Shown here: piece after piece, positions 2,142-19,152 of the stretch
Layout: each line of letters starts with the position of its first letter
Numbering within the stretch: the stretch's first letter is position 1
Assembly: GCA_001628405.1 (NCBI GenBank)
Contig: LURN01000025.1
Span: forward strand, 120 to 64,119
Reading direction: 5' to 3'
Length of the DNA: 64,000 bases
Source: Candidatus Thioglobus sp. REDSEA-S12_B1
GTDB lineage: Bacteria; Pseudomonadota; Gammaproteobacteria; PS1; Pseudothioglobaceae
Translations under genes and position numbers: made by a program
The notes under the pieces: model-generated
Told to the model about the DNA's origin: nothing
Seen by the model: the letters and a program-made list of their open reading frames with translations, nothing else
The model's database searches: none

Positions 2142-2972
2142 TTATTGTCCAAGAAGCTTTATTACTTTGACAGCAGTTTCTTTTAAATCTGGAATAACTT
2201 TTTGCATGATTTGAATCCTATCAAATAGACTAGGATTTGAATCTAAAGTTGATCTTAACGAATTTCCAAAACTTTTTCTTAATACCGTTCCAACATTGAA
2301 TTTTGTCACTTGGCTTTCTGACAACATTTTAATATCCTTATCTTTTATGCCACTTGTACCATGAACCACCAATGGAATACTTAACGCAGCTCTAAGCTTA
2401 TTAAATCTTTCAACATTAATTTCTACGCATCCTGTCTCTATTCGATGGACATTCCCAATTGAAATTGCAAGTGCATCGGGCTTGCCCTCTCTCTCCATTG
2501 CCAATGCCTCAGAAACCTCAGTAAGCTCTGACTTGATATGATCTCTTCCAGAGGCATAAGGAACCGAACCTACCTCAGCTTCCACTGAAACACCTTTAGG
2601 ATTAGCGTAAGAAACAATATCATGAATCGAAGCAATATTTTCCGAAATAGGCAATTGGGAACCATCAAACATGACTGATGTAAACCCACAATCAATAGCT
2701 TGCTTGACCACATCAACTTCATACGTATGATCCAGATGGATGCAAACGGGAACTTTAGAACTGATAGCCATTGGCTTCAACATTCCAATAATTTGATCCA
2801 TTGTCATAAATTGACGCATATCAAGATTAATTGAAAGAATAACAGAGGCATTTCTTGACTCAGCAGCATCGATGACAGCTCTTGAATCCTCAAAACCAAA
2901 AACGTTAAAACACGCTACAGCATACCCCTGATCTTTTGCGGGTAATAGAATATCTTTAAGATTTGAAATCAT
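2142..2972 (-). CDS. Class II fructose-bisphosphate aldolase family protein, IolJ-like (probable 2-deoxy-5-keto-gluconate-6-P aldolase)
   Basis: HLDH, GNVH and LVVHG Zn-ligand motifs, VEAEVG; last gene of the iol operon. Confidence 0.8.
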   Translation of the reverse strand: MISNLKDILLPAKDQGYAVACFNVFGFEDSRAVIDAAESRNASVILSINLDMRQFMTMDQIIGMLKPMAISSKVPVCIHLDHTYEVDVVKQAIDCGFTSVMFDGSQLPISENIASIHDIVSYANPKGVSVEAEVGSVPYASGRDHIKSELTEVSEALAMEREGKPDALAISIGNVHRIETGCVEINVERFNKLRAALSIPLVVHGTSGIKDKDIKMLSESQVTKFNVGTVLRKSFGNSLRSTLDSNPSLFDRIQIMQKVIPDLKETAVKVIKLLGQ

Positions 2973-3811
2973 TATTTAAATTTGTTAAGCATATCTTGCA
3001 TACCAGGAATTGTTTCGAGTTGATACGCATACTCCTTTTGATAGTTCATATGGAGCGGTCTCTGGCTCTCACCTGCCAAAATAGTAAAGTAATACATCTC
3101 AAATCCTGGGGCTGCAACACAAGGATGATAGCCTTTATCAAAAATAAATGTTGATCCATCACGAACATGGTAGACAGGGCCAAAATCTTCGCCATCAGGC
3201 GTTAAAAATTGAGCACCAAAACCATTAGAAGGGTTAAACCTGAAATTATAAACTTCATTGTGTCTACTCTCATCTGGAAGCATATCAGTTTCATGCTTGT
3301 GAGGAGGAAACCCTGACCAACCACCTTCTCCAACAGTAAACAATTCACTTACTAATAACTTGCCAACTTTTCCAGGTGGATTTTTACCTAAGATATGTTT
3401 AATTTTTCTGTGAGTTTTCGTATCATCAGACCCATACTGAACCTTGTCTATATCATTTTGCCTAATTACAAATGCCTCATAAGTCTCATTATGCTTTGCT
3501 CCAGAAATAAAAACTTCAGCTTTACCACTTTTGCATTTCAATTTAGCTTTTTGATTAACAGGGATATAAACTCCCTCAGGATCGCTCTCCCAAATATGAT
3601 TTCTTTTGCCAACTTCATTAAAATTTCGGCCTTCAACTTCAACATCAATCGTTCCAGTAGCAGGAACAATACAAGTTTCGTATTCACCTAGTTGATAACT
3701 AAACTCCTCTCCAGCAGAAAGTTTAATGATATTGAAATAACATAGAGGCACTATTTCATTATTGCAATCTACAATAGGTTCGTTATTATTTTCGTGTTGG
3801 GGGATATGCAT
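2972..3811 (-). CDS. iolB: 5-deoxy-glucuronate isomerase family (IolB/KduI), second copy
   Basis: GGWSGFPPHKHETD, HNEVYNFRF and GYHPCVAAPG motifs; start placed at ATG 3811 behind a GGAG RBS rather than 3823. Confidence 0.8.
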   Translation of the reverse strand: MHIPQHENNNEPIVDCNNEIVPLCYFNIIKLSAGEEFSYQLGEYETCIVPATGTIDVEVEGRNFNEVGKRNHIWESDPEGVYIPVNQKAKLKCKSGKAEVFISGAKHNETYEAFVIRQNDIDKVQYGSDDTKTHRKIKHILGKNPPGKVGKLLVSELFTVGEGGWSGFPPHKHETDMLPDESRHNEVYNFRFNPSNGFGAQFLTPDGEDFGPVYHVRDGSTFIFDKGYHPCVAAPGFEMYYFTILAGESQRPLHMNYQKEYAYQLETIPGMQDMLNKFK

Positions 3812-3813
3812 TT

Positions 3814-4809
3814 TTAACTCCACTCTGTTTTTGGTTCGATGGTCATAGCATCTTGCAAAGACTTTATTTCTTTAGCTGTAGGCATCGCACTAGCACAGCC
3901 CTGCTTTGAAACAACAATAGCCGCAGCAGCACTCCCAGCGTCAATTGCTTTTTCCCAGTCTCCTAAAGACATATAATTCATTATTAAATTCCCAAGAAAG
4001 GCATCTCCAGAACCATATGGTTTCAAAGCCTTTAGTTTATAAATGCCAGCATCTAAATGCCGATCTCCAGAAAATAGAGTGCATCCATTTTGGCCTTTTT
4101 TTAGAATCATTATCTGATTACTGGAAATACATTTTTGAACCTGAATTGTTAGTTCACTATTCAGAATCTTAAACTCCTCCTCATTCCCAATAATAACATC
4201 TGATAGCTCCTCAGCCTTCTGATATGCAGATCGAGTTGTTTCCTCATCGGGCCAATTCCAGTGCCTGTAATCTAGATCTAGCCAAACTTTACAATCATTA
4301 TTTTTGGCATGTTTCATCATTTTCAATACTTGTTTTCTTGAGTGGTCACTTATTAGACTCGTTCCTGTAACTACAAGATTACTACTATTCAAAATTGCCA
4401 ACTTTACATTTTGATCAAAGATGATTTGAAGGTCTGCTGGATTGTTACGATAAATTACAACTTCACAATCAATTGGGCGCTCTTCAGCAATTGCAAGGCT
4501 TGTCCTTTCGTTTCCATGAGTTGTCTGCATTAAATCTATTTCTATACCCTCTTTAACAAGTCGATTTTTAACAAATAAACCAACAGGATCATTTGAAAGT
4601 GCAGAAATCAGGCCAATATTACCACCAGCCCTTTTCATTGCAATAGCTATATTAGCTCCTGAGCCTCCAACATCTGATGCAAATAGTTCAGCAGACGTCG
4701 TTTTTGACCCTGGTGGCTGAGGATAAAGATCAAGACCAGCCCTCCCAACAACAAGTGCGTTCCAATCTCTGGATTCATGATAAATTAAATTTTGGACTTG
4801 ATTAGACAT
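3814..4809 (-). CDS. PfkB-family kinase, stand-alone IolC-like (5-dehydro-2-deoxygluconokinase)
   Basis: GRAGLDLYP, DVGGSGANIA, DLDYR, GNEEEF and GSGDAFLG PfkB motifs; start placed at ATG 4809, overlapping the upstream stop. Confidence 0.8.
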   Translation of the reverse strand: MSNQVQNLIYHESRDWNALVVGRAGLDLYPQPPGSKTTSAELFASDVGGSGANIAIAMKRAGGNIGLISALSNDPVGLFVKNRLVKEGIEIDLMQTTHGNERTSLAIAEERPIDCEVVIYRNNPADLQIIFDQNVKLAILNSSNLVVTGTSLISDHSRKQVLKMMKHAKNNDCKVWLDLDYRHWNWPDEETTRSAYQKAEELSDVIIGNEEEFKILNSELTIQVQKCISSNQIMILKKGQNGCTLFSGDRHLDAGIYKLKALKPYGSGDAFLGNLIMNYMSLGDWEKAIDAGSAAAAIVVSKQGCASAMPTAKEIKSLQDAMTIEPKTEWS

Positions 4810-5929
4810 CAACCCATTGACCAGAAAGGGCAGATCGATCAATTGCATCCATGACTCTTTCTATTTTTAGTCCATCTGAAAAATTGGGCCAAACAGACTG
4901 ACCAGTTTCAATCGCATCAAGAAGATGTTTTAATTCACACACCTTAACATCAATATAACCAAGACTATGGCCAGCATTTGGTAAAAAAGCATCATATGGT
5001 GGTTGAGCTGGACCACTCAAAATTGTTTTAAAGCCCTCCTGTCTTGGATCTTCACTACGAGTATAAAGCTTAATCTCATTTAAACGCTCTTGATCATGGC
5101 ATATCATTCCTTGTGACCCATGAATCTCCCAGCTTAGTCCACACTTTCTACCCCATGCCACTCTGCTAACTCTCAATGTGCCCTTGATTCCGCTCTCAAA
5201 ATGAGCCATTGCAGTACAAACATCATCATTATCAACAACGAGAGTTTGTCCTGGATTTTTTGGATCTGGACGCTGTTTATGAACTGTGTCATAATCACCT
5301 ACTAATCGAGTGATTTCACTTCCAGTCATATAGTGGGCCATACTAACTAGATGGCACATCACGTCAGCATTTGATCCTGTTCCAGACGCTTCCCGACTCA
5401 TACGCCAAGAATGGGGCCTATCTGGATCTGCCTCATTATCTACATCATAAACTCCATAAAACCCTATAACTCTTCCAATTACGCCTTCATCAATAAGTTT
5501 TTTTGCACTTTGAACTGCAGGATTTTGAGTATAGTTATAACCCAGTATTGTTTGAGAACTTGCTGCTTGTTTAGCAGCTTCAAGCATTGCCTCAGAGTCA
5601 GATAAATTGGTTGACATTGGCTTCTCACACCATACATGTTTTCCAAGCTTTAGAGCTGCTACTGAAATTTCTTTGTGCAATGAATTCGGTACGCATACAG
5701 AAATGAGTTCAACTTTTGGATCATTAACCAACTCCATCCATGAGCTAGTACATCTTGAAAAGCCCATTTCCTTTCTCATCACCTCAGCTCTATCAGGGTT
5801 ATAGTCACAAATCATTTCAAGCTTTGGTCTTAATCCGTCACCAAAAACACTTCCTGCTGCAGCATATGCAATCGAATGTGCCTTCCCCATAAAAGCTGTT
5901 CCTATAACTCCTATGCCAATTGTTTTCAT
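4802..5929 (-). CDS. Gfo/Idh/MocA oxidoreductase, scyllo-inositol dehydrogenase (LgdA/pl-sIDH)-like
   Basis: GTAFMG dinucleotide fold, CEKP, GYNY, DxxCH (DVMCH), DQERLNE and GPAQP motifs; located in the iol operon. Confidence 0.8.
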   Translation of the reverse strand: MKTIGIGVIGTAFMGKAHSIAYAAAGSVFGDGLRPKLEMICDYNPDRAEVMRKEMGFSRCTSSWMELVNDPKVELISVCVPNSLHKEISVAALKLGKHVWCEKPMSTNLSDSEAMLEAAKQAASSQTILGYNYTQNPAVQSAKKLIDEGVIGRVIGFYGVYDVDNEADPDRPHSWRMSREASGTGSNADVMCHLVSMAHYMTGSEITRLVGDYDTVHKQRPDPKNPGQTLVVDNDDVCTAMAHFESGIKGTLRVSRVAWGRKCGLSWEIHGSQGMICHDQERLNEIKLYTRSEDPRQEGFKTILSGPAQPPYDAFLPNAGHSLGYIDVKVCELKHLLDAIETGQSVWPNFSDGLKIERVMDAIDRSALSGQWVDV

Positions 5930-6831: not shown

Positions 6832-6858
6832 TTATTATCTCCAAATTGTTAGTAATAT

Positions 6859-8037
6859 TTATCTAGCAAGCCTGACTTGCTGTTGCTCCAATAGCTTCAA
6901 TTTAAATTTTTCTGGACTCAAAGAATCCAAAAGTGATTGTTTTGTAAGATCAAACATACTCATACCCTGTAGTTTGGAATCAGAATTTTTGTCAGAATCC
7001 AGGTTTGTCGGAAAAGCATAACCATCTGTTGCGCAAATAAGAACATTCTCAATTAATCTCTCTGACAGGGTTTTGTTTTTTATATGATCTAGCAACGAAG
7101 GATAGATATGGGTAATAATTTTTATATAATCTATATGCTCCATTGTCTTTCCAAAGGCAGATGAAATCTGAAGAAGATTTCCTATTCTATGAAAATTATT
7201 CGTAGTGTTTGCTCCTGCAGCATGAAATATAGCAGGATTAAAGAAAATACCGTCGCCTTTAGACATTGAATTTTGCACCGAATATTTATTAAAAAAATCA
7301 GCAAAATTTGTATCTCTCCATGTCAGGTAGCCCAAATCATATTGTTGTGAATAAGGTAGAACAACAGTAGGACCACTCTCTAAAGGCATATCAGTGTGTG
7401 CAACGCCTCCCTGTAAGGTCAAATAGTTTGAAAGGCGATGTATTGAAATTGGAAATTTTTCAACGACTTCATTTTCTTGAAAACCCAAATGATAGTCTCT
7501 GTGCGGTTTCTGCATTTCACCACCTGGCCTTACAATATTAACCTGAGCAGTCATTTGAGAGTTAGGGCCACACCATGACTCGGCAATAATCTTTACTAAA
7601 TCATTTGAATAGTAATTGATGAATGCCTCTTGGTTTTCCATGGCTACCTTTTGAAAGCTATTCCAGATTCTAGTATTGGTTCCAGCTGCAAAGTGGTCAT
7701 TACTAGAATTGCTTTCATTTTTTACAATTTTTTCAAAAATTGCATTACTCTCATCTATTACATCCTCATTGTATAGATTTCGAACTACAAATACTCCTGG
7801 TCCACTCTCTAAGACATGATGCATCTCTGTTTTCAATTTAATTTCTTCCTCAATATTGCCAACAAATGACCTAAAGTCTTTTGCATCATATATAACAACA
7901 TTATTTGAAATTGAATCAGAAAGCGGATAATTAGCTTCTATAGTTTCTTGGGAGCAGATACTTATTAATTCATCATAATCAATATCAGAATCACTAAAAT
8001 ACACTTGATGATTTAATGAAGAAGATTTTTCTTTCAT
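6859..8037 (-). CDS. Phytanoyl-CoA dioxygenase (PhyH) family Fe(II)/2-oxoglutarate dioxygenase, substrate unknown
   Basis: QVNIVRPGG, HRD facial-triad start (PHRDYHLG), GPT, GDGIFFNPAIFHAAG with the distal His. Confidence 0.8.
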   Translation of the reverse strand: MKEKSSSLNHQVYFSDSDIDYDELISICSQETIEANYPLSDSISNNVVIYDAKDFRSFVGNIEEEIKLKTEMHHVLESGPGVFVVRNLYNEDVIDESNAIFEKIVKNESNSSNDHFAAGTNTRIWNSFQKVAMENQEAFINYYSNDLVKIIAESWCGPNSQMTAQVNIVRPGGEMQKPHRDYHLGFQENEVVEKFPISIHRLSNYLTLQGGVAHTDMPLESGPTVVLPYSQQYDLGYLTWRDTNFADFFNKYSVQNSMSKGDGIFFNPAIFHAAGANTTNNFHRIGNLLQISSAFGKTMEHIDYIKIITHIYPSLLDHIKNKTLSERLIENVLICATDGYAFPTNLDSDKNSDSKLQGMSMFDLTKQSLLDSLSPEKFKLKLLEQQQVRLAR

Positions 8038-8039: not shown

Positions 8040-9896
8040 CTAGTAAGGCTGGTTAGTCTTTGATTTCCTATAGGCGCTCAGAACTTCATCGCTCTTTTCA
8101 TTTGAGGAAACCTCAGGCACTGCAACCTCCCACCAGCAGCCTCCTTCAGGGCTTATTTTGTGAGAGTCTGTGACTATACTGATCACATAGGACTTTGTTG
8201 ATAATCTTGCCCTCTCAAGAGCTGAAGCAAGTTCAGTTATATTCTCAACATGCTCAGAGTTAGCACCAAGTGATTTTGCATGCATTGCAAAATTAATTTC
8301 CGGATGACCGTCTTCTATACTTTTGCAGTCTTTGAGTAAATTATTAAAAGAACGATTTCCTGTTGCATTTTGAAGACGATTAATACATGAAAAACCTCTA
8401 TTATCTAGGACAACAGCAATAATTTTTTGACCTAGCATTACGCTTGTGGCAAGCTCTGAATTGAGCATCAGATAGGATCCATCACCCACAAGAACTATTA
8501 CTTCACGTTCTGGCTGAGCCATTTTGACGCCAAGTCCACCTGCAATCTCATAACCCATACAAGAAAAACCATACTCAGAATGATAGCCGCCTGTTTGCTC
8601 TGTTCTCCATAGCTTATGAAGTTCTCCAGGCAAACTTCCTGCTGCACACACTACGATATCGCTAGCATTTCCATTGCGCTTGACTTCTCCAAGCACCTGA
8701 GCATCCGTAGGTAAATTATTGTCTGCATCAGATGAACCATTTATAGATGTTATCTGATCATAATAGTCATTCCAGCTTGAGGCTTCTTTCTCCGACTCTA
8801 GAAACCACTCCTCAGATGCTTTCCAGTCTGAAAGCTGATCATCAAGTTCGTTCATACCAAGTCGTGCATCACCCCATAAAGAAAAGGCATTATGTTTTAT
8901 TGCATCAAACCGAGCGACATTTAATTGAACAAGTTTTTTATCGGAAAATAAAGCTCTCGAGCCTGAGATAAAATCATTTAATCTTGTACCGATTGCCAAA
9001 ACTACATCTGCTTGTCTAGCCAAGTTATTGGCTGCATTAGACCCTGTAACTCCAATGGCACCGACATAGCCTGGATGGTTCCAGGAAACTGCTCCTTTTC
9101 CGGCTGATGTCTCGGCAACTGGTATTTTATATTTTTCAGAAAATTTCTTTAGTGTGTCACAAGCATTAGCATAATGGACACCTCCACCTGCAATAATCAA
9201 AGGTTTTTTTGAATTTTTTAAGATTTCAGTAACACGAACTAACTCCTCATTATCAACCTTTATTTTGCGAATATTATGAACTCTTTTTTTGAAAAAATCT
9301 TCTGGATAATCGAATGCTTCTGCCTGAACATCTTGAGGCAAGGAAAGGGTTACTGGACCACAATTTTCAGGATCCAAAAGCGTTTGCATCGCAACAGGCA
9401 AGCTATTTATAATTTGTTCAGGTCTCATAATCCGATCAAAGTATCTGCTCACGGGTTTGAAGCAGTCATTTACACTCACAGTAGGGTCAGAAAAATCCTC
9501 TAATTGTTGCAGCACTGGATCTGGCGTTCGACTCGCAAAGTAATCACCTGGCAATAATAAAACAGGTAATCGATTTACATGAGCTAGTGCAGCAGCTGTT
9601 ACCATATTCGTTGCTCCAGGACCTATTGAACTTGTACACGCCATCATTCTTTTACGATTATTAGCTTTTGCATATGCAATCGCTGAGTGAACCATTCCCT
9701 GCTCACTATGGCCCCGATAGGTTGGTAACTCATCTTGAATTTCTGTCAGCGCCTGACCTATACCAGCAACATTTCCATGGCCAAAAATTGCAAAGACACC
9801 AGCAAATATTGGCTGAATACCCTCATCAGTCTCAATAAATTGTGAAGACATATATCGAACTATTGCCTGAGTCATTGTTAGTCTAATAGTTTTCAT
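8040..9896 (-). CDS. iolD: 3D-(3,5/4)-trihydroxycyclohexane-1,2-dione acylhydrolase
   Basis: IFGHGNVAG, EQGMVH, TPDPVLQQLE, EYGFSCMGYE and the TPP-binding GDGS...N motif. Confidence 0.96.
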   Translation of the reverse strand: MKTIRLTMTQAIVRYMSSQFIETDEGIQPIFAGVFAIFGHGNVAGIGQALTEIQDELPTYRGHSEQGMVHSAIAYAKANNRKRMMACTSSIGPGATNMVTAAALAHVNRLPVLLLPGDYFASRTPDPVLQQLEDFSDPTVSVNDCFKPVSRYFDRIMRPEQIINSLPVAMQTLLDPENCGPVTLSLPQDVQAEAFDYPEDFFKKRVHNIRKIKVDNEELVRVTEILKNSKKPLIIAGGGVHYANACDTLKKFSEKYKIPVAETSAGKGAVSWNHPGYVGAIGVTGSNAANNLARQADVVLAIGTRLNDFISGSRALFSDKKLVQLNVARFDAIKHNAFSLWGDARLGMNELDDQLSDWKASEEWFLESEKEASSWNDYYDQITSINGSSDADNNLPTDAQVLGEVKRNGNASDIVVCAAGSLPGELHKLWRTEQTGGYHSEYGFSCMGYEIAGGLGVKMAQPEREVIVLVGDGSYLMLNSELATSVMLGQKIIAVVLDNRGFSCINRLQNATGNRSFNNLLKDCKSIEDGHPEINFAMHAKSLGANSEHVENITELASALERARLSTKSYVISIVTDSHKISPEGGCWWEVAVPEVSSNEKSDEVLSAYRKSKTNQPY

Positions 9897-11809
9897 TACT
9901 GGACCTCCTTTCTATATTTTTTCCAAGCTTCAATCAAATCAATGTAATTCATTGAAACAGAATCAACTAACTCATCATCATTGATTTTCTGTTGCATCCA
10001 GAGTTCAGTTGGCTCATAAAAAATCGTTCTACCTACTGTGAATCCCTTGCATATGTCATATTTTGCTGCCACACCAAATGATTTTTTTACAATGTCTAGA
10101 GGGGCAGAAAGACCCAATAATAATACACCTTGGCAGTCTGAGTCATTTGTATTTATGATGCTACTTACTTCATCCCAGGAATTATCACTGAGTGATGGAA
10201 GCTTCCACCAATCAGGCTTTACTTCCAAACTATAAAATCTTTTTAGTATTTTTGGAATAGTTTTTTCATCATCTTTATATTCAGATGGCGGTATAACCTC
10301 AAGCAATAATTGATGACCGCTTTGAAGACACGCATGATAAAGTTCTTTTATTTTTTGTTCTTGCTTAAATTTAAGCTCCTCAGAATCATCTGGATGGTAG
10401 AAAAATAAGCACTTCACAGTATGCGTTAGAGGCCAAGAGTTTATCTTTGAGCCAATCGATTGCTCACCTTCAAACATAAGCGGCCTTGAACTTGGAAGTT
10501 CTACTGGTCTTCCAATCCACCATGATTTTTCAGCAAGTGAATTTAGCGCATCCTCTCCATAGGTATCATCAATTAATACTCCAATATTTTTTTCTGGGAT
10601 CTTTAATTTATCAATAACTTTTTGAGTTGACCTGATGAATAGGTTTTTTATTTTTTTGATTTGTTTAGAATCTACCCCATGCTTCTCAGAAAGATCAAGC
10701 AACTGTTTGCGATGGTCAAACGCAAAACCAAAAATCTCTTGCTCCTGATGAGCTCTAAAGCTAACTCTATGAAGATGATTTAATGTTACGTCTGTACTTG
10801 GATTTGCTATCTTGTGAGCATTTTCTAGATAGTATAGTAACTCTTTTTCCCCAGGAATTGCGGGAGCACAGCCGTGACGAGACACTACTAATGCACCAGC
10901 GGCATTTGCATAATTAGCGCTTTTTTCGAGACTCTCTCCTCTTAGATAACCACGAAGGAAACCTGACATAAATGCATCACCTGCTCCCAGAACGTTTAGA
11001 ATATCCACTTGGTTTCCCTTGATCACTTTGAAGTCATCTGAACTATTTGGAATATCACTAGTAATCACCGTACAACCTAATGGCCCGAGCTTTAGAACGA
11101 TAATGGAGTCACTTAGCTCTCTAATTTTCGTCAATGCAGCAATAGTATCTTCACTTCCACCCGCAATGTGAATCTCTTCCTCAGTTCCAACAACAAGATC
11201 ACAGTAAGGAAGTATGGTTTGCAAGTGACGACTCACATCATCGCTTGCAACAAATCGAGACTCGCCATCGCCTAATTCTGTTAGACCCCAAAGCACAGGT
11301 CGATAATCAATATCAACTATGACTTGAGTGTCAGAGGCTTTTGCATATTCAATTGCCTTCATGCTTGTCTGATATGTATTTTCTGATGAAAAATGTGTTC
11401 CAGTAATTAGTAAAGACCTGCTACTTGCAATAAATTCTTTACTAAAATCCTTTTCGCTAATTGCCATATCAGCACAGTCTTTACGATAGAAGATAAGCGG
11501 AAAGGTTTCTTTATCTTGAATTCCCAAAACGACTAATCCGGTTAATCTCTCTTTATCGGTCACCACATGAGAAGTATCTACACCAACACTTTCTAATTCA
11601 TTTCGAACAAAGCGCCCCATATGCTCATTTCCAACTCGAGTCAGCATAGCTGAATTGAGGCCAAGTTTGGAACATCCATAGGCAATATTTGCTGACGAAC
11701 CGCCTAAATATTTAGCAAAACTTCCCATGTTTTCCAAACTCGAGCCAATCTGTTGACCATAAAAATCAACAGCCGCCCTCCCTAAGCAAATGATATCAAT
11801 TGATTTCAT
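9896..11809 (-). CDS. iolC: Bifunctional 5-dehydro-2-deoxygluconokinase with C-terminal DUF2090 (aldolase-like) domain
   Basis: GRAAVDFYGQQIG, GAGDAFMSG, then AFDHR, GRPVELP, KPDWWK, GFTVGRTIF; start placed at ATG 11809 (TAATG overlap with iolB). Confidence 0.95.
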   Translation of the reverse strand: MKSIDIICLGRAAVDFYGQQIGSSLENMGSFAKYLGGSSANIAYGCSKLGLNSAMLTRVGNEHMGRFVRNELESVGVDTSHVVTDKERLTGLVVLGIQDKETFPLIFYRKDCADMAISEKDFSKEFIASSRSLLITGTHFSSENTYQTSMKAIEYAKASDTQVIVDIDYRPVLWGLTELGDGESRFVASDDVSRHLQTILPYCDLVVGTEEEIHIAGGSEDTIAALTKIRELSDSIIVLKLGPLGCTVITSDIPNSSDDFKVIKGNQVDILNVLGAGDAFMSGFLRGYLRGESLEKSANYANAAGALVVSRHGCAPAIPGEKELLYYLENAHKIANPSTDVTLNHLHRVSFRAHQEQEIFGFAFDHRKQLLDLSEKHGVDSKQIKKIKNLFIRSTQKVIDKLKIPEKNIGVLIDDTYGEDALNSLAEKSWWIGRPVELPSSRPLMFEGEQSIGSKINSWPLTHTVKCLFFYHPDDSEELKFKQEQKIKELYHACLQSGHQLLLEVIPPSEYKDDEKTIPKILKRFYSLEVKPDWWKLPSLSDNSWDEVSSIINTNDSDCQGVLLLGLSAPLDIVKKSFGVAAKYDICKGFTVGRTIFYEPTELWMQQKINDDELVDSVSMNYIDLIEAWKKYRKEVQ

Positions 11810-12606
11810 TATTGCTCTAGCATCCACTCATGATCAGGATGATTATTAAATATCCATTGCCTTTTCGGACCGGCCATAACATTTAAATAATAAGAATCGT
11901 ATCCATGAGGAGCTCCTACAGGATGATATCCTTTTGGTACAAGCACAACGCACTTATCTTCGACTGCCATTGTCTCATCAATTGATAAATCATCGGTATA
12001 AACTCTCTGGAAAACAAAGCCTTGCGGTGGATTGATTCGATGATAATAGGTTTCCTCTAAATAGGTTTCAACTGGAATATTATCTGAGTCATGTTTGTGA
12101 GGAGGATAGCTAGACCAGTTACCTGCAGGAGTTTTTACCTCAACCACAAGTAGACTATCAGCTTCATCTTGTTCAGGCAGTATATTGCAAATAAATCTCT
12201 GATTACTGCCCTCACCCCTTACCTCACTTGACATTTCGCTAGGCTTAATATGTCTGGCTGGAAAGTTATTAAATCCTGGCGCAATTGCTATAGCCAGCTC
12301 TAGTTGTGTTAATGCGGTTACTTTAATTTTTTTGTTGTTTGGAACATATACTGCATGAGGATTTATATCGTCAAAAACACTCATTCTCTCACCAATATTA
12401 TTGAACTCTATTTCTTCGACGCTAATATTAGCAATTCCAGATAAAACCACTAAACAACACTCATTGGATTTATCTTCCCAATTTAGCTCCTCATCTTCTT
12501 TAAGCTCATGGGCCTCAAAACCCACAAAATCCCAATTTGCTGATTGTGGTGTAATTTTCTGATAACAACTATCTTTACTATTTTTTGGTCGACTTAATAA
12601 TGACAT
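11809..12606 (-). CDS. iolB: 5-deoxy-glucuronate isomerase
   Basis: GNWSSYPPHKHD, LEETYYHR, GYHP and YYLNVMAGP. Confidence 0.95.
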   Translation of the reverse strand: MSLLSRPKNSKDSCYQKITPQSANWDFVGFEAHELKEDEELNWEDKSNECCLVVLSGIANISVEEIEFNNIGERMSVFDDINPHAVYVPNNKKIKVTALTQLELAIAIAPGFNNFPARHIKPSEMSSEVRGEGSNQRFICNILPEQDEADSLLVVEVKTPAGNWSSYPPHKHDSDNIPVETYLEETYYHRINPPQGFVFQRVYTDDLSIDETMAVEDKCVVLVPKGYHPVGAPHGYDSYYLNVMAGPKRQWIFNNHPDHEWMLEQ

Positions 12607-13428
12607 TTAATTTCCTTGTTGATGGTAGCCAATTGAAATACATATTGCTTGAACTAGACACATTGTTGCCCCTAAGGATCTAAATGTATGAATTTCAGCT
12701 TCATGAATACTAAATAAATAATCTGCAAGATGAGCGATTGGATTTAGCTCAGTATCTGTCAAAAGAATTACCTTTGAATTAGATTGTTTAGCTATCTTGA
12801 CTGCCTGAGTAGTGTTTTCATTGTAAGGGTTATATGTTATAGCTATAAAAACGGTTTGCTCGTCGAGCCAATTTGATAAATTATCAACTTCACTTGGGTC
12901 ATTAACAATACGGCACCTCATTCCGAGGTTATTTAACATATAGTAAAAATAATTGGCTACTGGTTGGGCTCTATTTGTACCGCATATTATTACTTCAGTT
13001 GCTCCGCATAAGGCCAATACTGATTCTTCCATCAAATCAATGTCAATGTTTTCAGCAAGAAGCTGAGTAGCTTCAACATTTCTTCTGGTTACATCATAAA
13101 ATATATTTGATGAATCAGTATCTGATTCACTGCCAGTAATTTTTTTTACATCCGTAATTCGCTGCTGATAATTTATTGTACTTTGAGCAATCCTTACTTT
13201 AAATAATGATTGCAGTTGAGCAAATCCACTAAAACCAAAGTGTTTCGCAAATCGAACCAATGTCGATGGGTAAACTCCAATATCATCAGCAATGACAGCA
13301 AGTGTATTAATAGCTAAATTTTGAGGCTGATCAACAATATAAAAAGCAATCAACTTCATTTTCTTACTCAAGGAGGGATAACTCTCTTGAAGTAATTGAT
13401 TTAATTCATTTATATTTGATGGGATCAT
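12607..13428 (-). CDS. iolR: MurR/RpiR-family transcriptional regulator (IolR-like)
   Basis: N-terminal HTH (PSTLVRFAKHFGFSGF) plus SIS domain; embedded in the iol operon. Confidence 0.8.
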   Translation of the reverse strand: MIPSNINELNQLLQESYPSLSKKMKLIAFYIVDQPQNLAINTLAVIADDIGVYPSTLVRFAKHFGFSGFAQLQSLFKVRIAQSTINYQQRITDVKKITGSESDTDSSNIFYDVTRRNVEATQLLAENIDIDLMEESVLALCGATEVIICGTNRAQPVANYFYYMLNNLGMRCRIVNDPSEVDNLSNWLDEQTVFIAITYNPYNENTTQAVKIAKQSNSKVILLTDTELNPIAHLADYLFSIHEAEIHTFRSLGATMCLVQAICISIGYHQQGN

Positions 13429-13439: not shown

Positions 13440-14420
13440 CTACAAATTTTCTGGCAAGCCAGATTTAAGAGACCTTTGCGCAGCTTCTGCAATTCTTAAG
13501 GCAAGAACTCCATCTTCAATATTCACACTGGGCTTAACCCCCAAATGATAGGACTCCATAAAATGGAGCAATTCATTGTGGTATGCCTTCTCATATCGTT
13601 CTAAAAAAAAATGCTGAGCTTTTGCATGATTAATGCCATCAGCATTACTAAGAACTACTTTGTCTTCTAACTCATTTTTTACCTGCAGCATGCCGCTTTC
13701 TCCAAAAGCCTCAATTCTTTGATCGTAACCAAAGGCAGCTTGTCTTCCATTTAAAATAGTAACTATTGAGCCCTTTTTCATATTCATAATGACGCTAGCT
13801 GTATCAACATCACCCTCTCTTTTGATGTCCTTATCATTTGCTCTGGCAGAAACATAAATACTCTCTGGTAAATCATTTAAAAGCCAACAAGCCATATCAA
13901 AATCATGAATCATCATGTCGTGAAAAAGGCCTCCAGAACTTCGTATATATTCCATCGAAGGCGGAGAAGGATCATGAGAAGTAATCACTAATGATTGAAT
14001 AGAACCAATTAAATTACTATCTAATTTATTTTTCAAGCTTGCCATATTTGGATCAAAACGTCTATTGAATCCAAGCATGCAAACAATTCCACTCTGCTCT
14101 ACAGATTTTGCACAAGATTCAGCTCTATCAAGACTAAGGTCAATTGGTTTTTCACAAAAAACAGGCTTGCCCACTTGTGAACACTTTTCTATAAGGTCAG
14201 CATGAGTTGCAGTGCTGCTAGCGATGATATATGCATCAATATCTGCATTGCTAAATGCTTCATCAATAGTCAAAACTTCGGCGCTATATTTTTTTGCAAG
14301 AGAATCAGCTGCCTCTTGATTAACATCAACTACAGAGTGAAGAGTTGCATTTTGTTCACTTGCAATAGCAATTGCGTGAACAATTCCAATTCTTCCAGCG
14401 CCAATTAAACATATTTTCAT
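13440..14420 (-). CDS. iolG: myo-inositol 2-dehydrogenase
   Basis: GAGRIG, CEKP, GFNRRFD, SGGLFHDMMIHDFD, YDQRIE and FFLERY. Confidence 0.92.
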   Translation of the reverse strand: MKICLIGAGRIGIVHAIAIASEQNATLHSVVDVNQEAADSLAKKYSAEVLTIDEAFSNADIDAYIIASSTATHADLIEKCSQVGKPVFCEKPIDLSLDRAESCAKSVEQSGIVCMLGFNRRFDPNMASLKNKLDSNLIGSIQSLVITSHDPSPPSMEYIRSSGGLFHDMMIHDFDMACWLLNDLPESIYVSARANDKDIKREGDVDTASVIMNMKKGSIVTILNGRQAAFGYDQRIEAFGESGMLQVKNELEDKVVLSNADGINHAKAQHFFLERYEKAYHNELLHFMESYHLGVKPSVNIEDGVLALRIAEAAQRSLKSGLPENL

Positions 14421-14460
14421 AGGATTTTATAATTCATTGTCTCGCAGATCTATCTTGAAC

Positions 14461-15231
14461 TTAGTTTCTAGCTTTGAGTTCAGAGAGTTCTTTGTTGCCA
14501 GACATCATAAATTGTAATTCTTCATAATTAATTTCACCAGCTTTAGCAGTCCCTAGAGTTTCGCCTCTTGACAAAACAGTAAATTTATCTCCAACAGCCA
14601 ACGCATGAGAAACATTATGCGAAATGAAAACTACCGCAACACCTTTTTCTCTTACCTTTTCAATCGTTTTTAAAACATTTGATGTTTGGTAAACCCCAAG
14701 AGCAGAAGTTGGCTCATCCAGGATCAATATCTCGGCACCAAAATATACTGCCCTAGAAATTGCAACAGTTTGCCTTTCACCGCCAGAAAGTGTGCCTATA
14801 GATTGACTTGGATCTCTCAACTTAATACCAATCTTATCCATCTCAGACATTAAGATTGAATTACATTTCTCAAAGTCCATTACAGTAATTGGCCCAACTT
14901 TTTTTGTTAGCTCGCGTCCAAGCCAAAAATTTCGCGCTACAGACATCAATGGAATCAAAGCTAAATCTTGATAAACTGTAGCAATACCCGAATTGATTGC
15001 ATCTCGAGGCCCACTCATTTCGACTGGTCTGCCATCAATCATAATTTCACCTGATGTAGGTTGATGAACACCAGACATAATCTTAATTAAGGTAGATTTA
15101 CCAGCACCATTATCACCAAGTAGACAGTGGCACTCACCTTTCTTAATTGAAATTGATACACCTTTAAGAGCATCAACATTTCCAAAGCTTTTGTGGATGT
15201 TTGAAAGCTGCATTATTGACTTGTCACTCAT
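14461..15231 (-). CDS. Sugar (inositol) ABC transporter ATP-binding protein
   Basis: Walker A GDNGAGKS, LSGGERQ signature, ILDEPT; single-domain ATPase. Confidence 0.92.
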   Translation of the reverse strand: MSDKSIMQLSNIHKSFGNVDALKGVSISIKKGECHCLLGDNGAGKSTLIKIMSGVHQPTSGEIMIDGRPVEMSGPRDAINSGIATVYQDLALIPLMSVARNFWLGRELTKKVGPITVMDFEKCNSILMSEMDKIGIKLRDPSQSIGTLSGGERQTVAISRAVYFGAEILILDEPTSALGVYQTSNVLKTIEKVREKGVAVVFISHNVSHALAVGDKFTVLSRGETLGTAKAGEINYEELQFMMSGNKELSELKARN

Positions 15232-16337
15232 CATTTAGCTCCTGTAATTAATTTACGAACATGTGTATTTAGAATGACTGCGAGCAATAGCAATACGCCA
15301 AGGAAAACTCTAAATAATGAGCTCTCTACTCCAATAAAGAACAGGCCTTGTTGAACTACTCCAAAGATCACAGCACCAAGTGCGGCACCAATCACTGAAC
15401 CATATCCTCCAGTCAAAAGAGCACCGCCAATCACCACCGAGATAATAGCCTCAAATTCCTTAAGAATTCCTCTATCAGCAGAAGCAGAACCAAATTCAAT
15501 CACCTGAGTTGTGGCGAAAACTGTAGCACAAAAAGCAGTAAAAACAAACATCAAAATCTTGACTCTATTTACAGGAACACCAATATGTCGAGCTGCCTGC
15601 GCATCTCCACCAGATGCATAAATCCAGTTACCAAAACGAGTTTTTGTTAATAAAAAATGTGCAAAGATTACAAGTCCTATTGCCCATACTATCATCATTG
15701 GTATACCCGATACAACCGGTTGACCAGCCTTAGTGCCTGCTACAAAAGTTTGAATCAAGCCTTTCTCACCAAGCCAATCAAAAACTCCTGTAAAAATCTC
15801 ACCACCAAAAATTGGAGCTAACCAATCATTTTCAGCGACTTCAGTAACACCGCCAATAATAGTTTTTTTAGTACTAATAATTGCAATAAAGATTGTCATA
15901 CCTCGCAAGATATATAAAAAAGCAAGGCTAACAATAAAAGAGGGTAAATTTGTTCTGACTGTAATGTAGCCAATTAGTGCTCCTATAGACATTGAAACAA
16001 CGAAGGCTGTAATGATACTTAGCCATACGGGCCATCCCCAAACTACTGATGTGACAGCAATAACTATGCCTGCAAAACCAATCATAGATCCTACAGATAG
16101 ATCAAATTCTCCTGCAATCATTAGCAGGCAAGCTCCGACGGCAATAATTATAAATTGGGAAGATACTATACCCCAGTTCATTGAGCCCTCTAGAGAGAAC
16201 ATTCCGGTATCTCGAGCTACTAAAAAAAAGAAAAGGAATACTAAAACAACACCAACTATGGCGCCTAGATCTGGCCTTAACATGACACTTCTAAAATTAG
16301 TTTTAAGGCTTGAATTGTTTTTTACATCATCTGACAT
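15231..16337 (-). CDS. Sugar (inositol) ABC transporter permease
   Basis: GEFDLSVGS, LPSFIVSL, TRFGNWIYASGGD and SVVIGG; multiple TM segments. Confidence 0.92.
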   Translation of the reverse strand: MSDDVKNNSSLKTNFRSVMLRPDLGAIVGVVLVFLFFFLVARDTGMFSLEGSMNWGIVSSQFIIIAVGACLLMIAGEFDLSVGSMIGFAGIVIAVTSVVWGWPVWLSIITAFVVSMSIGALIGYITVRTNLPSFIVSLAFLYILRGMTIFIAIISTKKTIIGGVTEVAENDWLAPIFGGEIFTGVFDWLGEKGLIQTFVAGTKAGQPVVSGIPMMIVWAIGLVIFAHFLLTKTRFGNWIYASGGDAQAARHIGVPVNRVKILMFVFTAFCATVFATTQVIEFGSASADRGILKEFEAIISVVIGGALLTGGYGSVIGAALGAVIFGVVQQGLFFIGVESSLFRVFLGVLLLLAVILNTHVRKLITGAK

Positions 16338-16363
16338 GAGTTTTAATCCACTGAGGTTTTATT

Positions 16364-16409
16364 AAAAAAAATGCTACCCACTTTACTACAATGATCAAGT
16401 GAGTAGCAT
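16364..16409 (-). terminator. Intra-operon hairpin plus U-tract between the binding-protein and permease genes
   Basis: ATGCTAC-C-CACTT / AAGTG-A-GTAGCAT inverted repeat (16371-16409) with an A-run at 16364-16371, read as a U-tract on the minus strand. Confidence 0.6.
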
Positions 16410-16428
16410 CTTTTAGATCAATTAACTT

Positions 16429-17391
16429 TTAACGATATACGCCTGCGTATTTTTCAACTAAGCTAATATTACTCTTAGTGATAAATCCAGGTCCAGAGTT
16501 AATAGCACCAGAAGGCCAAACTCCATAACGTGAAAGGTTAGTTAAGAATACAACTGGAAGGTATCCTTGTAGGTACGGCTGCTGATCAATTGCAAATGAA
16601 ATTACATCAGCCTTAACCGCTGCTGCAATCTCTCCAGAAAGATCAAAAGTACCAAAATAGATATCACCAGTTTTACCCATATCATCCAAAGCTGCAAGTG
16701 TTGGATGAGCTGATGTAGGTCCTAAAGTAAGGATTGCATCTGTAGATGGGTGAGATCTTAGATGTGCCATAACCTTGTTCTTGATTTCTGTAGGATCTTG
16801 TCCTGAATCAATCATTTGATGACCTAAGTCAACACCAAGTGCATCAGCATAGCCCTGGCAACGATCAACAGAAACCGGGTTAGTAAAGAAGTGGTTGACG
16901 CATAAGAATTCAGTTACGCCAGCTGCCTTAGCTCTCTTTCCAGCACCATATCCAGCATCATATTCTGGTTGGCCAATGTGAGCCAATGCTCCAAGTGACT
17001 CAGACTGTTCACGTGTTCCAGAGTTAATTGTTACTACAGGAATTCCTTTAGCTATAGCTGAAGTAATTGGTCCTTTCAAGACGTCGTAGTCAGCAATTGT
17101 AACAATAATACCGTCTGGATTACTTGCAGCAGCTTGCTCTACGATGCGAGCCATATCAGCAAGATCGCCAGTAGTTGGGTTACGATAATCAACATCAACA
17201 CCCATCTGCTCTCCAGCAGTTGAAATTGCATTTTTAATTGTATTCCACCATGAATCAGAATCTGGTGCATGGCTGATTAATACAAATTTCTCTCCAGAGG
17301 CAACTGCGGCAGAACTGCCAAACATTGTTGCTCCAAAAAGAACAGACACTGCTAAAAATACCTTCGCAGTGTTTTTGTAGATTTTAAACAT
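16429..17391 (-). CDS. Sugar ABC transporter substrate-binding protein (probably inositol)
   Basis: Signal peptide; SHAPDSDSWW, GTFDLS and DQQPYLQGY (periplasmic binding fold I); iol context. Confidence 0.9.
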   Translation of the reverse strand: MFKIYKNTAKVFLAVSVLFGATMFGSSAAVASGEKFVLISHAPDSDSWWNTIKNAISTAGEQMGVDVDYRNPTTGDLADMARIVEQAAASNPDGIIVTIADYDVLKGPITSAIAKGIPVVTINSGTREQSESLGALAHIGQPEYDAGYGAGKRAKAAGVTEFLCVNHFFTNPVSVDRCQGYADALGVDLGHQMIDSGQDPTEIKNKVMAHLRSHPSTDAILTLGPTSAHPTLAALDDMGKTGDIYFGTFDLSGEIAAAVKADVISFAIDQQPYLQGYLPVVFLTNLSRYGVWPSGAINSGPGFITKSNISLVEKYAGVYR

Positions 17392-17507
17392 AATGTTTTT
17401 CTCCTATTTATATATAAATTAAATATCAAAATTGATATCAATCTTGAAACAAAAGTTGTCACAAGAAAATTTAGTATACATCAATTAATTTAGGTTGTTA
17501 TATTTTT

Positions 17508-17542
17508 TTCTATTTTTAGAAAAATAGAACATATGTTATAAT
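17508..17542 (+). promoter_or_regulatory. Candidate iolA promoter (extended -10 TGtTATAAT, 17534-17542) overlapped by inverted repeats
   Basis: Perfect TTCTATTTTT-AG-AAAAATAGAA (17508-17529) and near-palindrome TAGAACAT-ATGTTATA (17525-17540). Confidence 0.5.
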
Positions 17543-17652
17543 TTATCTAAGATTAATATCTGCCTAACGATAAAAAATAGCAAGAATTATAAAAAAAATA
17601 ATACTAGAAATGACTTCTTGGTATATTAACTCAATAAATTAAAACAACCCTC

Positions 17653-19152
17653 ATGTCTTCAAACAACCTACAACATATTATTGGTGGAAAGAAACATTCT
17701 GGATCATCAGGTCGAAGCCTGGATGTTTTTAATCCTGCCACCGGCAAAGTCACAAAGTCAATTGAAGCTGCTAGTGCAAAAGATACTGCCAAAGCGATTC
17801 AAGTAGCCAGTGATGCTTTTGAAGATTGGAGTCAAGTCCCCCCCTCTAAACGGGCTCAAATCATGTTTACTTATCGCGAGCTTATTATTAAGCACACCGA
17901 TGAACTCGCAGAACTGATCTCAAAGGAACACGGTAAAACCTTTGCAGATGCTCAAGGTGAAGTGGGAAGAGGGCTTGAGATAGTGGAGTATTGCACGGCA
18001 ATTAATAATCATCTCAAGTCTGACTTTAGTGCGGATGTCTCCAGAGGCATTGATAGCCATAATTTGCGTCAAGCGCTCGGCGTCTGTGCGGGTATTGTTC
18101 CGTTTAACTTCCCTGCGATGGTTCCGATGTGGATGTTCCCAGTAGCGATTGCTTGCGGCAACACCTTTGTTTTAAAGCTCTCAGAGAAAGTACCATCTTG
18201 CGGGTTAAGACTCACTGAACTGATCCATGAAGCGGGTCTTCCAGATGGCGTATTAAATACAATCGTTGGCGATAAAGAAGCAGTCGATGAAATCCTAACC
18301 AACCCTCAAGTGAGAGCAGTGAGCTTTGTTGGCTCGACTGGTGTGGGTGAGTATATTTATCAAGAAGGTTCAAAGAACAACAAGAGAGTTCAAGCATTAT
18401 GCGGTGCTAAAAATCATATGATAGTGATGCCCGATGCTGATCTCGATCAAAGTAGTGATGCAATTATTGGAGCAGCTTATGGCTCTGCAGGTGAGAGATG
18501 TATGGCTATCTCTGTTGTGGTTGCTGTGGGTGATGAGACAGCAGATCAGCTGATTGAGTCACTTATACCCAAAGTTAAGTCACTGAAAATTGGCGCTTAC
18601 GATGAACCTGGTGTTGAGATGGGTCCAGTCGTCTCCAAAGAAAGTCAGGATAAAATCGTCTCTTATATTGACGCAGGACTCAAGGCCGGAGCCGATCTTA
18701 AGGTTGATGGCAGGTCGGAAACTGAAAGAGAGGGTTTTTATGTTGGCGGATGTCTTTTTGACAATGTCAGCTCAGATATGTCCATTTATACTGATGAAAT
18801 CTTTGGCCCAGTTCTCTCTGTTGTTAGAGTCTCAAATTATGATGAAGCGCTCAAGCTGGTCAATGACCATGAGTATGGTAATGGAACGGCTATTTTTACC
18901 AGGGACGGTGATACAGCGCGCCACTTTACAACGAATGTGAAAGTTGGCATGGTTGGCGTTAACATACCCATCCCTGTTCCTGTTGCAATGCACAGTTTTG
19001 GTGGTTGGAAGAGATCTCTTTTTGGCGGCTCCTCGATTCATGGAATGGAAGGAGTAAGGTTTTATACGCAGCTTAAAACGATTACTTCGAGATGGCCATC
19101 TGGCATTCGAAAGGGCGCTCAGTTCAATTTTGAAAGTGGGAAAGACGTTTAA
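17653..19152 (+). CDS. iolA: CoA-acylating methylmalonate/malonate-semialdehyde dehydrogenase
   Basis: PFNFPAMVP, SFVGST, AKNH, GERCMA, EIFGPV and FGGWKRSLFG; divergent from the iol operon (mmsA family). Confidence 0.95.
   Translation: MSSNNLQHIIGGKKHSGSSGRSLDVFNPATGKVTKSIEAASAKDTAKAIQVASDAFEDWSQVPPSKRAQIMFTYRELIIKHTDELAELISKEHGKTFADAQGEVGRGLEIVEYCTAINNHLKSDFSADVSRGIDSHNLRQALGVCAGIVPFNFPAMVPMWMFPVAIACGNTFVLKLSEKVPSCGLRLTELIHEAGLPDGVLNTIVGDKEAVDEILTNPQVRAVSFVGSTGVGEYIYQEGSKNNKRVQALCGAKNHMIVMPDADLDQSSDAIIGAAYGSAGERCMAISVVVAVGDETADQLIESLIPKVKSLKIGAYDEPGVEMGPVVSKESQDKIVSYIDAGLKAGADLKVDGRSETEREGFYVGGCLFDNVSSDMSIYTDEIFGPVLSVVRVSNYDEALKLVNDHEYGNGTAIFTRDGDTARHFTTNVKVGMVGVNIPIPVPVAMHSFGGWKRSLFGGSSIHGMEGVRFYTQLKTITSRWPSGIRKGAQFNFESGKDV

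Follow-up and report, generated by a model that had tools for sequence, protein, structure and literature searches.

An inositol catabolic operon with a doubled lower pathway and an embedded 2-oxoglutarate dioxygenase in Candidatus Thioglobus sp. REDSEA-S12_B1

A 64 kb stretch of contig LURN01000025.1 from Candidatus Thioglobus sp. REDSEA-S12_B1 (positions 120 to 64,119; GC content of approximately 37%), referred to here as the window, carries a locus for inositol catabolism (iol) in an unusual fused form. A canonical gene set shares one strand with a second dehydrogenase, a second kinase-isomerase-aldolase trio and the gene for a PhyH-family dioxygenase. Doubling of this kind has been seen before, and the embedded dioxygenase comes from a widespread iol-associated family without a characterised member. 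On balance, we consider it somewhat more probable than not that the locus works as a single regulated mosaic operon, through which inositols are taken up and fully broken down and several cyclitols are funnelled into one pathway. An earlier note on this DNA had read it as an undescribed system for a chemically different cyclitol; the genes that it described and their cyclitol context are borne out below, whereas the distinct substrate of the second trio and the uniqueness of the arrangement are not.

Fourteen genes lie on the minus strand from position 17391 down to 2142, with spacings of -47 to +91 nt, and iolA is divergent from them. This inventory, its order and its tight packing were proposed in the earlier note, and all were reproduced at the same coordinates by an open reading frame listing and by Pfam and NCBIfam scans. 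The features are given below; bit-score cut-offs are the NCBI curated equivalog thresholds (NCBIfam).

17653..19152 (+): IolA, CoA-acylating malonate/methylmalonate-semialdehyde dehydrogenase (MMSDH), divergent; TIGR01722, 654 bits (cut-off 448)
17508..17529 (no strand): perfect 10-2-10 palindrome, TTCTATTTTT-AG-AAAAATAGAA, in the iolA/SBP divergent spacer; candidate operator
16429..17391 (-): CUT2-type periplasmic substrate-binding protein (SBP); Peripla_BP_4, 1.1e-42
15231..16337 (-): ABC permease; BPD_transp_2
14461..15234 (-): ABC ATPase with a single nucleotide-binding domain, 257 aa; ABC_tran
13440..14420 (-): IolG, myo-inositol 2-dehydrogenase; TIGR04380, 388 bits (cut-off 355)
12607..13428 (-): RpiR/SIS regulator, IolR-type; HTH_6 and SIS domains
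11809..12606 (-): IolB type 1, 5-deoxy-glucuronate isomerase; TIGR04378, 348 bits (cut-off 205)
9896..11827 (-): IolC-DUF2090 fusion, 5-dehydro-2-deoxygluconokinase and 2-deoxy-5-keto-gluconate 6-phosphate (DKGP) aldolase; NF047869, 834 bits (cut-off 600)
8040..9896 (-): IolD, ring-opening thiamine diphosphate (ThDP) hydrolase; TIGR04377, 939 bits (cut-off 715)
6859..8037 (-): PhyH-family Fe(II)/2-oxoglutarate dioxygenase, 392 residues; PF05721, 87.5 bits
5926..6831 (-): IolE, inosose dehydratase; TIGR04379, 401 bits (cut-off 290)
4802..5929 (-): scyllo-inositol-dehydrogenase-like (sIDH-like) GFO oxidoreductase; best PDB match 5ya8, E 8.6e-102
3814..4848 (-): IolC2, PfkB IolC-like kinase type 2; TIGR04382, 266.7 bits (below the cut-off of 300)
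2972..3823 (-): IolB2, KduI/IolB-family isomerase type 2; TIGR04378, 162.8 bits (below the cut-off of 205)
2142..2972 (-): class II (zinc) aldolase, IolJ-like; F_bP_aldolase PF01116, 1.8e-67, under every equivalog cut-off for fructose- or tagatose-bisphosphate aldolases (FBA/TBA)

Every protein of the first set (IolG, IolE, IolD, IolB, IolC-DUF2090 and IolA) clears its NCBIfam cut-off, whereas in the same scan IolB2, IolC2 and the class II aldolase all fall short of theirs. IolG, the RpiR-type regulator, IolB, IolC-DUF2090, IolD and IolE are judged from these assignments to form a canonical set, which we call module A. The role of DUF2090 as an aldolase was proposed from fitness data (PMC9007349). 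The true start of IolC2 is probably at codon 14.

Judging by the source names of near-identical proteins, the window belongs to Candidatus Pseudothioglobus, the heterotrophic branch of the SUP05 clade. The 15-gene layout is also present in five other Pseudothioglobus/SUP05 loci, including those of complete genomes of 1.79 and 1.74 Mb, with proteins that are 70-98% identical to those of the window, and the operon is therefore not an accident of assembly. The window was compared pairwise with three related loci, giving ratios of nonsynonymous to synonymous substitution (dN/dS) of 0.013-0.13 across all 14 operon genes, values that are rough because dS is partly saturated. The most constrained genes include those of the sIDH-like enzyme (0.02-0.04) and IolB2 (0.03-0.04), the value for PhyH is 0.085-0.10 and IolC2 is the least constrained (0.09-0.13). 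All 14 genes are under strong purifying selection. Contigs from two marine RNA-Seq (metatranscriptome) runs cover the genes of the SBP, IolC-DUF2090, IolE, the sIDH-like enzyme, PhyH, IolC2 and IolB2; in metatranscriptome X5 the SBP contig has a depth of approximately 154 and the other operon genes have depths of 0-5, contig depth being only a rough guide to expression. The earlier argument that the extra genes have been kept in a streamlined genome is upheld by the selection on them (dN/dS of 0.02-0.13) and by this contig coverage.

The core of the palindrome is kept in four related genomes (L001, L003, L004 and L005), in which the remaining spacer has diverged, and no second copy within 3 mismatches was found across the 64 kb window. 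The palindrome is a candidate operator for the RpiR-type regulator, and its single occurrence suggests that the second set is not separately regulated. Consensus scans for promoters and terminators gave the same counts as in shuffled sequence and were uninformative on sub-operons. A literature search returned no paper tying Pseudothioglobus or Thioglobus singularis to inositol.

Relatives of the second lower trio and dehydrogenase

IolB and IolB2 share 30% identity, the IolC domain of the fusion and IolC2 share 31%, and IolG and the sIDH-like enzyme share 23%. A recent duplication of the lower pathway is ruled out by identities of 23-31% between the paralogous pairs, and the two sets are best described, on this comparison, as anciently diverged paralogues. 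A tblastn search of plasmids returned IolB2 orthologues of 52-60% identity in marine Rhodobacterales, on one Rhizobium plasmid and in Photobacterium. A class II aldolase gene adjoins in the nine best of these records, with unannotated sequence instead in Photobacterium.

The strictly conserved arrangement that we label cassette B runs in the order ABC ATPase-permease-SBP, LacI, GFO-TIM barrel-GFO and IolD-IolC-IolB2-type isomerase-class II aldolase, usually with IolG. It is complete in Ruegeria sp. TM1040, Paracoccus fistulariae, Rhizobium sp. WL3, Roseobacter fucihabitans and Shimia, and occurs on both plasmids and chromosomes of roseobacters; a Marinovum plasmid carries its GFO-TIM-GFO genes and its IolD-to-aldolase core without the flanking importer genes. 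The type-2 trio directly follows IolD in cassette B and is the sole lower set there. Identity to the cassette-B proteins is 61-67% for the window SBP (compared with those of Ruegeria, Paracoccus, Rhizobium WL3, Roseobacter and Shimia), 66-71% for the permease, 60-65% for the ATPase and 55-60% for IolB2. The values are lower for the sIDH-like enzyme against one of the cassette GFOs (42-44%) and for IolC2 and the aldolase (33-41%). From this orthology, the operon is read as a mosaic that adds three parts of cassette B, its importer, a single dehydrogenase and its lower trio, to module A. On the NCBIfam models the cassette-B IolC (310 bits, cut-off 300) and IolD pass, and the isomerase (154 bits, cut-off 205) and the IolE-like TIM-barrel protein (174 bits, cut-off 290) both fail.

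In Photobacterium the trio follows a canonical-like IolE and IolD. All of the loci retrieved have it within an iol cluster, where its neighbours include IolD, IolG or both. Plasmids of Marivivens and Aestuarium combine the two units, module A lying beside a cassette B that lacks its own IolD. A second IolB/IolC/aldolase set is thus present, as the earlier note proposed, but it is neither new nor unique: it is that of cassette B, and the doubling, which is found in Marivivens, Aestuarium and Vibrio coralliilyticus, is recurrent and has already been noticed.

Two further observations were made on these loci. The IolB2-type isomerase (L083 12010-12852 and its homologues) is 88-100% identical in many genera of roseobacters, among them Shimia, Sulfitobacter, Thioclava, Aliiroseovarius, Roseobacter and Tritonibacter, which suggests either that cassette B has spread recently or that the constraint on it is very tight; Phaeobacter is absent from the 120 best IolB2-type matches. 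The plasmid of Aestuarium zhoushanense (L087 29633-30861) has Rieske ferredoxin and fatty-acid-desaturase-like genes (MocE/MocD-like) at the edge of its doubled iol locus.

The HLDH, VH and HG motifs of the window aldolase (catalytic Asp-His and zinc-binding His) align with AgaY, at positions that we take to be D82/H83, H180 and H208 of that enzyme, and the window protein is therefore an intact enzyme. It shares only 33-37% identity with class II aldolases on Bacillus plasmids. By type it is likened to PGA1_c07220, an IolJ-like aldolase that matters for the growth of Phaeobacter inhibens, a roseobacter, on myo-inositol, DUF2090 being the commoner alternative to an IolJ-like aldolase (PMC9007349). 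The second trio is accordingly described, as a prediction, as an IolJ-type (class II aldolase) lower pathway of a divergent clade.

The second dehydrogenase named in the earlier note is confirmed. The sIDH-like protein aligns over its full length with the scyllo-inositol dehydrogenase LgdA of Paracoccus laeviglucosivorans (Pl-scyllo-IDH; 5ya8), its best match, with a score of 344 bits. Seven of eight catalytic or substrate-binding residues are kept (K106, Y135, Y163, R178, D191, H195 and H318; residue roles are taken from PMC5969746). They include the catalytic Lys106-Asp191-His195, Arg178 in a loop specific to the subfamily, the trans-subunit His318, Tyr135 and Tyr163. The eighth residue, the hydroxyl-binding Glu165, is replaced by Val in all Pseudothioglobus copies examined, those of the window and of a second species (L004) included. 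In the cassette-B GFO orthologues Glu165 is kept and His replaces Tyr163. Pl-scyllo-IDH prefers scyllo-inositol (Km of 3.7 mM), oxidises myo-inositol at another carbon to give L-epi-2-inosose, and also accepts L-glucose (PMC5969746). Membership of the window protein in the Pl-scyllo-IDH subfamily is well supported by its sequence, and scyllo-inositol would be its preferred substrate. A levoglucosan pathway was considered and rejected, since the protein reaches 319 bits on the levoglucosan dehydrogenase model (cut-off 650) and its best PDB match is scyllo-IDH.

Alternatively, the sIDH-like enzyme and the second trio might form a non-cyclitol pathway, for a substrate such as L-glucose or a deoxy- or keto-sugar acid, that happens to share the operon. 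The activity of Pl-scyllo-IDH on L-glucose would fit such a pathway, as would the score on the levoglucosan model, the placement of the IolB family and KduI under one Pfam model, and the likeness of IolC2 to 2-keto-3-deoxygluconate (KDG) kinases, albeit at a lower score. However, the best NCBIfam matches of IolC2 and IolB2 are iol models, the trio is found, in all loci retrieved, in an iol cluster beside IolD and/or IolG, and the Pfam and NCBIfam scans found no further sugar-acid dehydratase at the window locus. The known L-glucose route also uses other downstream enzymes. We regard a non-cyclitol pathway as very improbable.

The PhyH-family dioxygenase

The HxD...H iron triad and the 2-oxoglutarate (2OG)-binding Arg are present in the PhyH protein (H179-x-D181, H272 and R284) and are conserved in 29-32 of 32 aligned relatives. 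Its AlphaFold2 model (pLDDT of 91.5) is matched by Foldseek with a probability of 1.0 to PhyH-type oxygenases, which have a double-stranded beta-helix fold, although the matches (TlxJ, EasH, SptF, AndA and AsqJ) are distant only, with TM scores of 0.45-0.5 and 13-20% identity. A single-sequence search of the PDB gave zero matches, a profile search of the PDB gave only weak ones of at most 36 bits to distant fungal and bacterial PhyH-type oxygenases, and an NCBIfam scan matched zero models. No characterised close relative for the transfer of a substrate class was thus found via the PDB, profile, NCBIfam or Foldseek searches, and because the matches are only to distant PhyH-type oxygenases no function can be transferred. 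The protein is predicted to be an intact Fe(II)/2OG dioxygenase of an iol-associated, uncharacterised subfamily. The embedded dioxygenase of the earlier note therefore stands as regards its intact HxD...H/Arg site and its setting in cyclitol loci, but no substrate can be named for it.

The family is small: a search of 1.84 billion proteins gave 863 representatives at E <= 1e-3. In a scan of one genome per species (185,579 species), a PhyH relative is encoded in at least 570 stretches. The nearest relatives outside the genus share at most approximately 50% identity. The fusion partners of long homologues (multicopper oxidase, HET domain and rhodanese domain) look like fungal gene-model merges or unrelated proteins and were uninformative. 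No paper describing an iol-associated PhyH dioxygenase, or connecting PhyH with inositol, was found in the literature search.

Genomic context was counted in the 77 best loci outside Pseudothioglobus, which come from several phyla, with GFO genes counted within 10 kb. An IolG- or sIDH-like GFO dehydrogenase is near PhyH in 60 of the 77, a LacI-type regulator in 64, and an SDR adjoins in 56; the two SDRs scanned (from Pseudomonas and Streptomyces) belong to one conserved subfamily, NF004847. Away from the iol operons of marine bacteria, PhyH travels with the LacI-type regulator and the adjoining SDR in Pantoea, Erwinia, Pseudomonas, Commensalibacter and Streptomyces, and in Streptomyces this module lies amid IolE-like, IolC, IolB, IolD and ABC-transporter genes. 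Within or next to iol clusters, but without the SDR, PhyH is also found in Psychromonas, Saccharospirillum, a Tara metagenome-assembled genome (MAG) and two MAGs of actinobacteria. Marinovum and Shimia have a PhyH relative of approximately 40% identity beside cassette B. In Shimia sp. MIT1388 (L092 12764-20858), the gene directly after cassette B encodes a PhyH protein of 392 aa and has a divergent LacI regulator of its own; GFO and TIM-barrel genes come next, together with another CUT2 ABC importer, and the arrangement resembles a moc locus.

It could be argued that PhyH is a passenger unrelated to cyclitols, such as an osmolyte or amino-acid-derivative hydroxylase that arrived by chance insertion. 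The functional diversity of the PhyH family is very high, and approximately one fifth of the related loci, including those of Pantoea, Erwinia, Leeia, Commensalibacter and Anaeromyxobacter, have no GFO or iol gene within 10 kb. These iol-free loci nevertheless retain the sugar-type LacI regulator and the SDR, with a sugar MFS transporter as well in Commensalibacter, and the association with a GFO/IolG-like dehydrogenase in the other loci spans several phyla. Moreover, the Pseudothioglobus gene is separated from the preceding iolD by 2 nt and from the following iolE by 27 nt, a position kept across the genus, and its dN/dS is low (0.085-0.10). A passenger origin therefore appears very improbable. 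Taken together, these contexts make PhyH and the second trio separable modules, both of cyclitol loci; the claim that the extra genes belong with cyclitol catabolism is supported by the PhyH relatives beside GFO and iol genes and by the trio within iol clusters.

Several other genes in the window touch on related chemistry. Directly 3' of iolA lie genes for an MttB-family methyltransferase (19278-20834, plus strand) and a DMGDH/GcvT-like fusion (20850-23267, plus strand), a pair of the kind that removes methyl groups from methylated amines or glycine betaine. The window also encodes another PhyH-family protein, small at 274 aa (51171-51995, minus strand); its gene adjoins an NAD_binding_2 dehydrogenase-like gene (52021-52908) and is unrelated to the iol locus. 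A SuhB-like inositol monophosphatase family gene (45487-46242, plus strand) lies amid housekeeping genes. For the window protein encoded at 31676-33640, a look-up returned no record.

Proposed route and its alternatives

The operon, with iolA, encodes an ABC importer and the whole of the canonical route. The importer would bring the substrate into the cell, where IolG would form scyllo-inosose, IolE would dehydrate it, IolD would open the ring and IolB would isomerise the product. IolC-DUF2090 would then phosphorylate and cleave it to dihydroxyacetone phosphate and malonic semialdehyde, the latter being converted to acetyl-CoA by IolA. Through the sIDH-like enzyme scyllo-inositol would enter as scyllo-inosose, and the same enzyme may oxidise myo-inositol at another carbon. 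PhyH would act, with O2 and 2OG, on an unactivated C-H bond in a modified cyclitol, yielding an inositol or inosose for the trunk pathway. Among its possible reactions, oxidative O-demethylation of a methyl-inositol is ranked as most likely, followed by hydroxylation of a deoxy-inositol and then by oxidative deamination of an inosamine; by chemical logic, a 2OG oxygenase would be needed only at a methyl ether, methylene or amine-bearing carbon, beyond the reach of NAD-dependent dehydrogenases. The second trio would run parallel to the first, on the same 5-deoxy-glucuronate or on a diastereomer derived from a differently configured inosose. The RpiR/SIS regulator, acting on the single conserved palindrome, probably senses a phosphorylated intermediate.

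Several points weigh against this reading of one operon for several cyclitols. The substrates of PhyH, the sIDH-like enzyme and the second trio are ones that we infer from sequence, and in the case of PhyH, for want of a characterised relative, the proposed reaction is drawn from chemistry and genomic context. The window operon also lacks the specific SDR that is paired with PhyH in most other genomes, so that the role of PhyH here may differ, and the partial saturation of dS blunts the estimates of selection. The type-2 trio is the only lower set after IolD in cassette B and follows a canonical-like IolE and IolD in Photobacterium, and Phaeobacter requires an IolJ-like aldolase to use myo-inositol (PMC9007349); all three fit a second trio that is isofunctional with the first. 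Finally, the window has no counterpart of the divergent IolE-like TIM barrel of cassette B (174 bits against a cut-off of 290), the absence of which weakens the case for a stereo-divergent branch in this organism.

Redundancy of the two trios is thus a serious rival. The locus might be a mosaic in which module A and part of cassette B, each from an iol cluster gained by horizontal transfer, have been joined; both sets would act on standard myo-inositol intermediates, the sole gain would be scyllo-inositol and the trio would be kept for flux or kinetics. To the positions of the trio as the only lower set beside IolD (in Ruegeria TM1040, Paracoccus fistulariae, Rhizobium WL3, Roseobacter and Shimia) and in Photobacterium, and to the importance of PGA1_c07220 for growth of Phaeobacter on myo-inositol (PMC9007349), can be added the cassette-B IolC, which clears the IolC cut-off (310 against 300), and the second set in the window, for which neither a separate regulator (Pfam scan) nor a separate operator (palindrome search) was found. 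Simple redundancy is harder to reconcile with the strong purifying selection on both sets in genomes of 1.7-1.8 Mb whose proteins are only 70-90% identical between species, and with the independent recurrence of the doubling in Alphaproteobacteria and two gammaproteobacterial lineages. In addition, IolB2 and the IolE-like protein of cassette B fall under the curated equivalog cut-offs, and region 1 of Vibrio holds both IolB types in a single operon. We judge a purely redundant mosaic to be a possibility of some weight, although one that is rather unlikely.

Because the trio recurs as the sole lower set of cassette B, and because the doubling is shared with Marivivens, Aestuarium and Vibrio coralliilyticus, we treat it only as a possibility that the second trio has a substrate of its own. 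As to the chemically different cyclitol that the earlier note assigned to the second set, no result here shows different intermediates. A bolder extension is that PhyH founds a family of 2OG-dependent cyclitol oxygenases, present in Streptomyces, plant-associated Proteobacteria and marine bacteria and including, for example, methyl-inositol O-demethylases or deoxy-inositol hydroxylases, and that the type-2 trio and the sIDH-like enzyme together make up a branch of different stereochemistry, whose starting inosose is not scyllo-inosose. We put this forward tentatively, as a proposal that is more apt to fail than to hold. If it were true, abundant and streamlined ocean heterotrophs would use algal cyclitols that are uncounted in labile marine carbon.

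Pseudothioglobus are heterotrophic SUP05 relatives that are abundant in the ocean and have genomes of approximately 1.8 Mb, and the conserved 17 kb inositol locus, together with the depth of the SBP contig, suggests that cyclitols are a real carbon source for them. The PhyH subfamily is the most useful lead to come from the locus: its members, in at least 570 stretches, lie mostly beside inositol-type dehydrogenases, and none is characterised. In work on how Erwinia uses pinitol, the demethylation step was not identified (PMC9788770), and assignment of a function to PhyH could fill a gap such as methyl removal in bacterial pinitol use. An answer on the redundancy of the two trios would settle iol annotation in roseobacters, vibrios and rhizobial plasmids.

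Comparison with known systems

The iol system of Bacillus subtilis (IolG, E, D, B, C, J and A, with IolX, IolW and IolI for other isomers) has the same reaction sequence as the window. The likeness extends to the lower branch with a class II aldolase of the IolJ type and to the extra dehydrogenases, which in B. subtilis serve scyllo- and D-chiro-inositol. The window differs in adding, within the same operon, a second, non-homologous aldolase solution, IolC-DUF2090, and in having no IolI. B. subtilis uses MFS transporters and a DeoR-type regulator and has no 2OG dioxygenase in its iol system, whereas the window has an ABC importer, an RpiR-type regulator and a 2OG dioxygenase. Module A together with IolA is of the kind found in proteobacterial iol loci with the IolC-DUF2090 fusion (PMC9007349). 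Those loci have a single lower set and no PhyH; the window adds the type-2 trio, the sIDH-like dehydrogenase and the dioxygenase.

A closer parallel to the doubling is found in Vibrio coralliilyticus, which has two iol regions (preprint 10.1101/2024.01.16.575920). According to that study, region 1 is an iolE-D-idh-iolC-B-J-R-I-B-G operon with two IolB types, which are 63.5% and 31% identical to Salmonella IolB, and region 2 consists of iolC-D-E-A with an ABC importer. Deletion of iolG from region 1 abolished growth on myo-inositol, V. harveyi, with region 1 only, does not grow on it, and the authors concluded that both regions are needed, while speculating that region 1 may serve inositol derivatives (10.1101/2024.01.16.575920). 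The window and V. coralliilyticus share doubled iol genes, two IolB types, an 'idh' GFO gene, a short IolC, IolJ and RpiR, and both have iolC-D-E-A genes with an ABC importer. In Vibrio, however, the sets lie in two separate regions, IolE and IolD are doubled and PhyH is not reported, whereas the window has one fused operon with a single IolE and IolD.

Cassette B has an orthologous importer and GFO enzyme, and its IolC2-IolB2-aldolase order is that of the window. The LacI regulator, the second GFO gene and the divergent IolE-like TIM barrel, which are present in the cassette-B loci L083, L088, L089, L091 and L092, are absent from the window, which has module A instead. For the sIDH-like enzyme, the context of LgdA (5ya8) is an L-glucose pathway, whereas that of the window homologue, with its Glu165 to Val change, is an iol operon.

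Rhizopine catabolism (MocABC with MocDEF) follows the same logic: an oxygenase strips a substituent from a modified cyclitol, and breakdown is completed by a dehydrogenase of the GFO type, by a TIM-barrel enzyme and by the iol pathway. The window SBP is related to the rhizopine SBP family but scores below the cut-off of its model (279 against 420 bits), and a Pfam scan found no MocDEF-type domains in any gene of the locus. MocDEF is a three-component oxygenase of the Rieske/desaturase type, unlike the 2OG dioxygenase of the window; demethylating rhizopine ahead of the iol pathway, it provides a functional precedent from an unrelated enzyme family.

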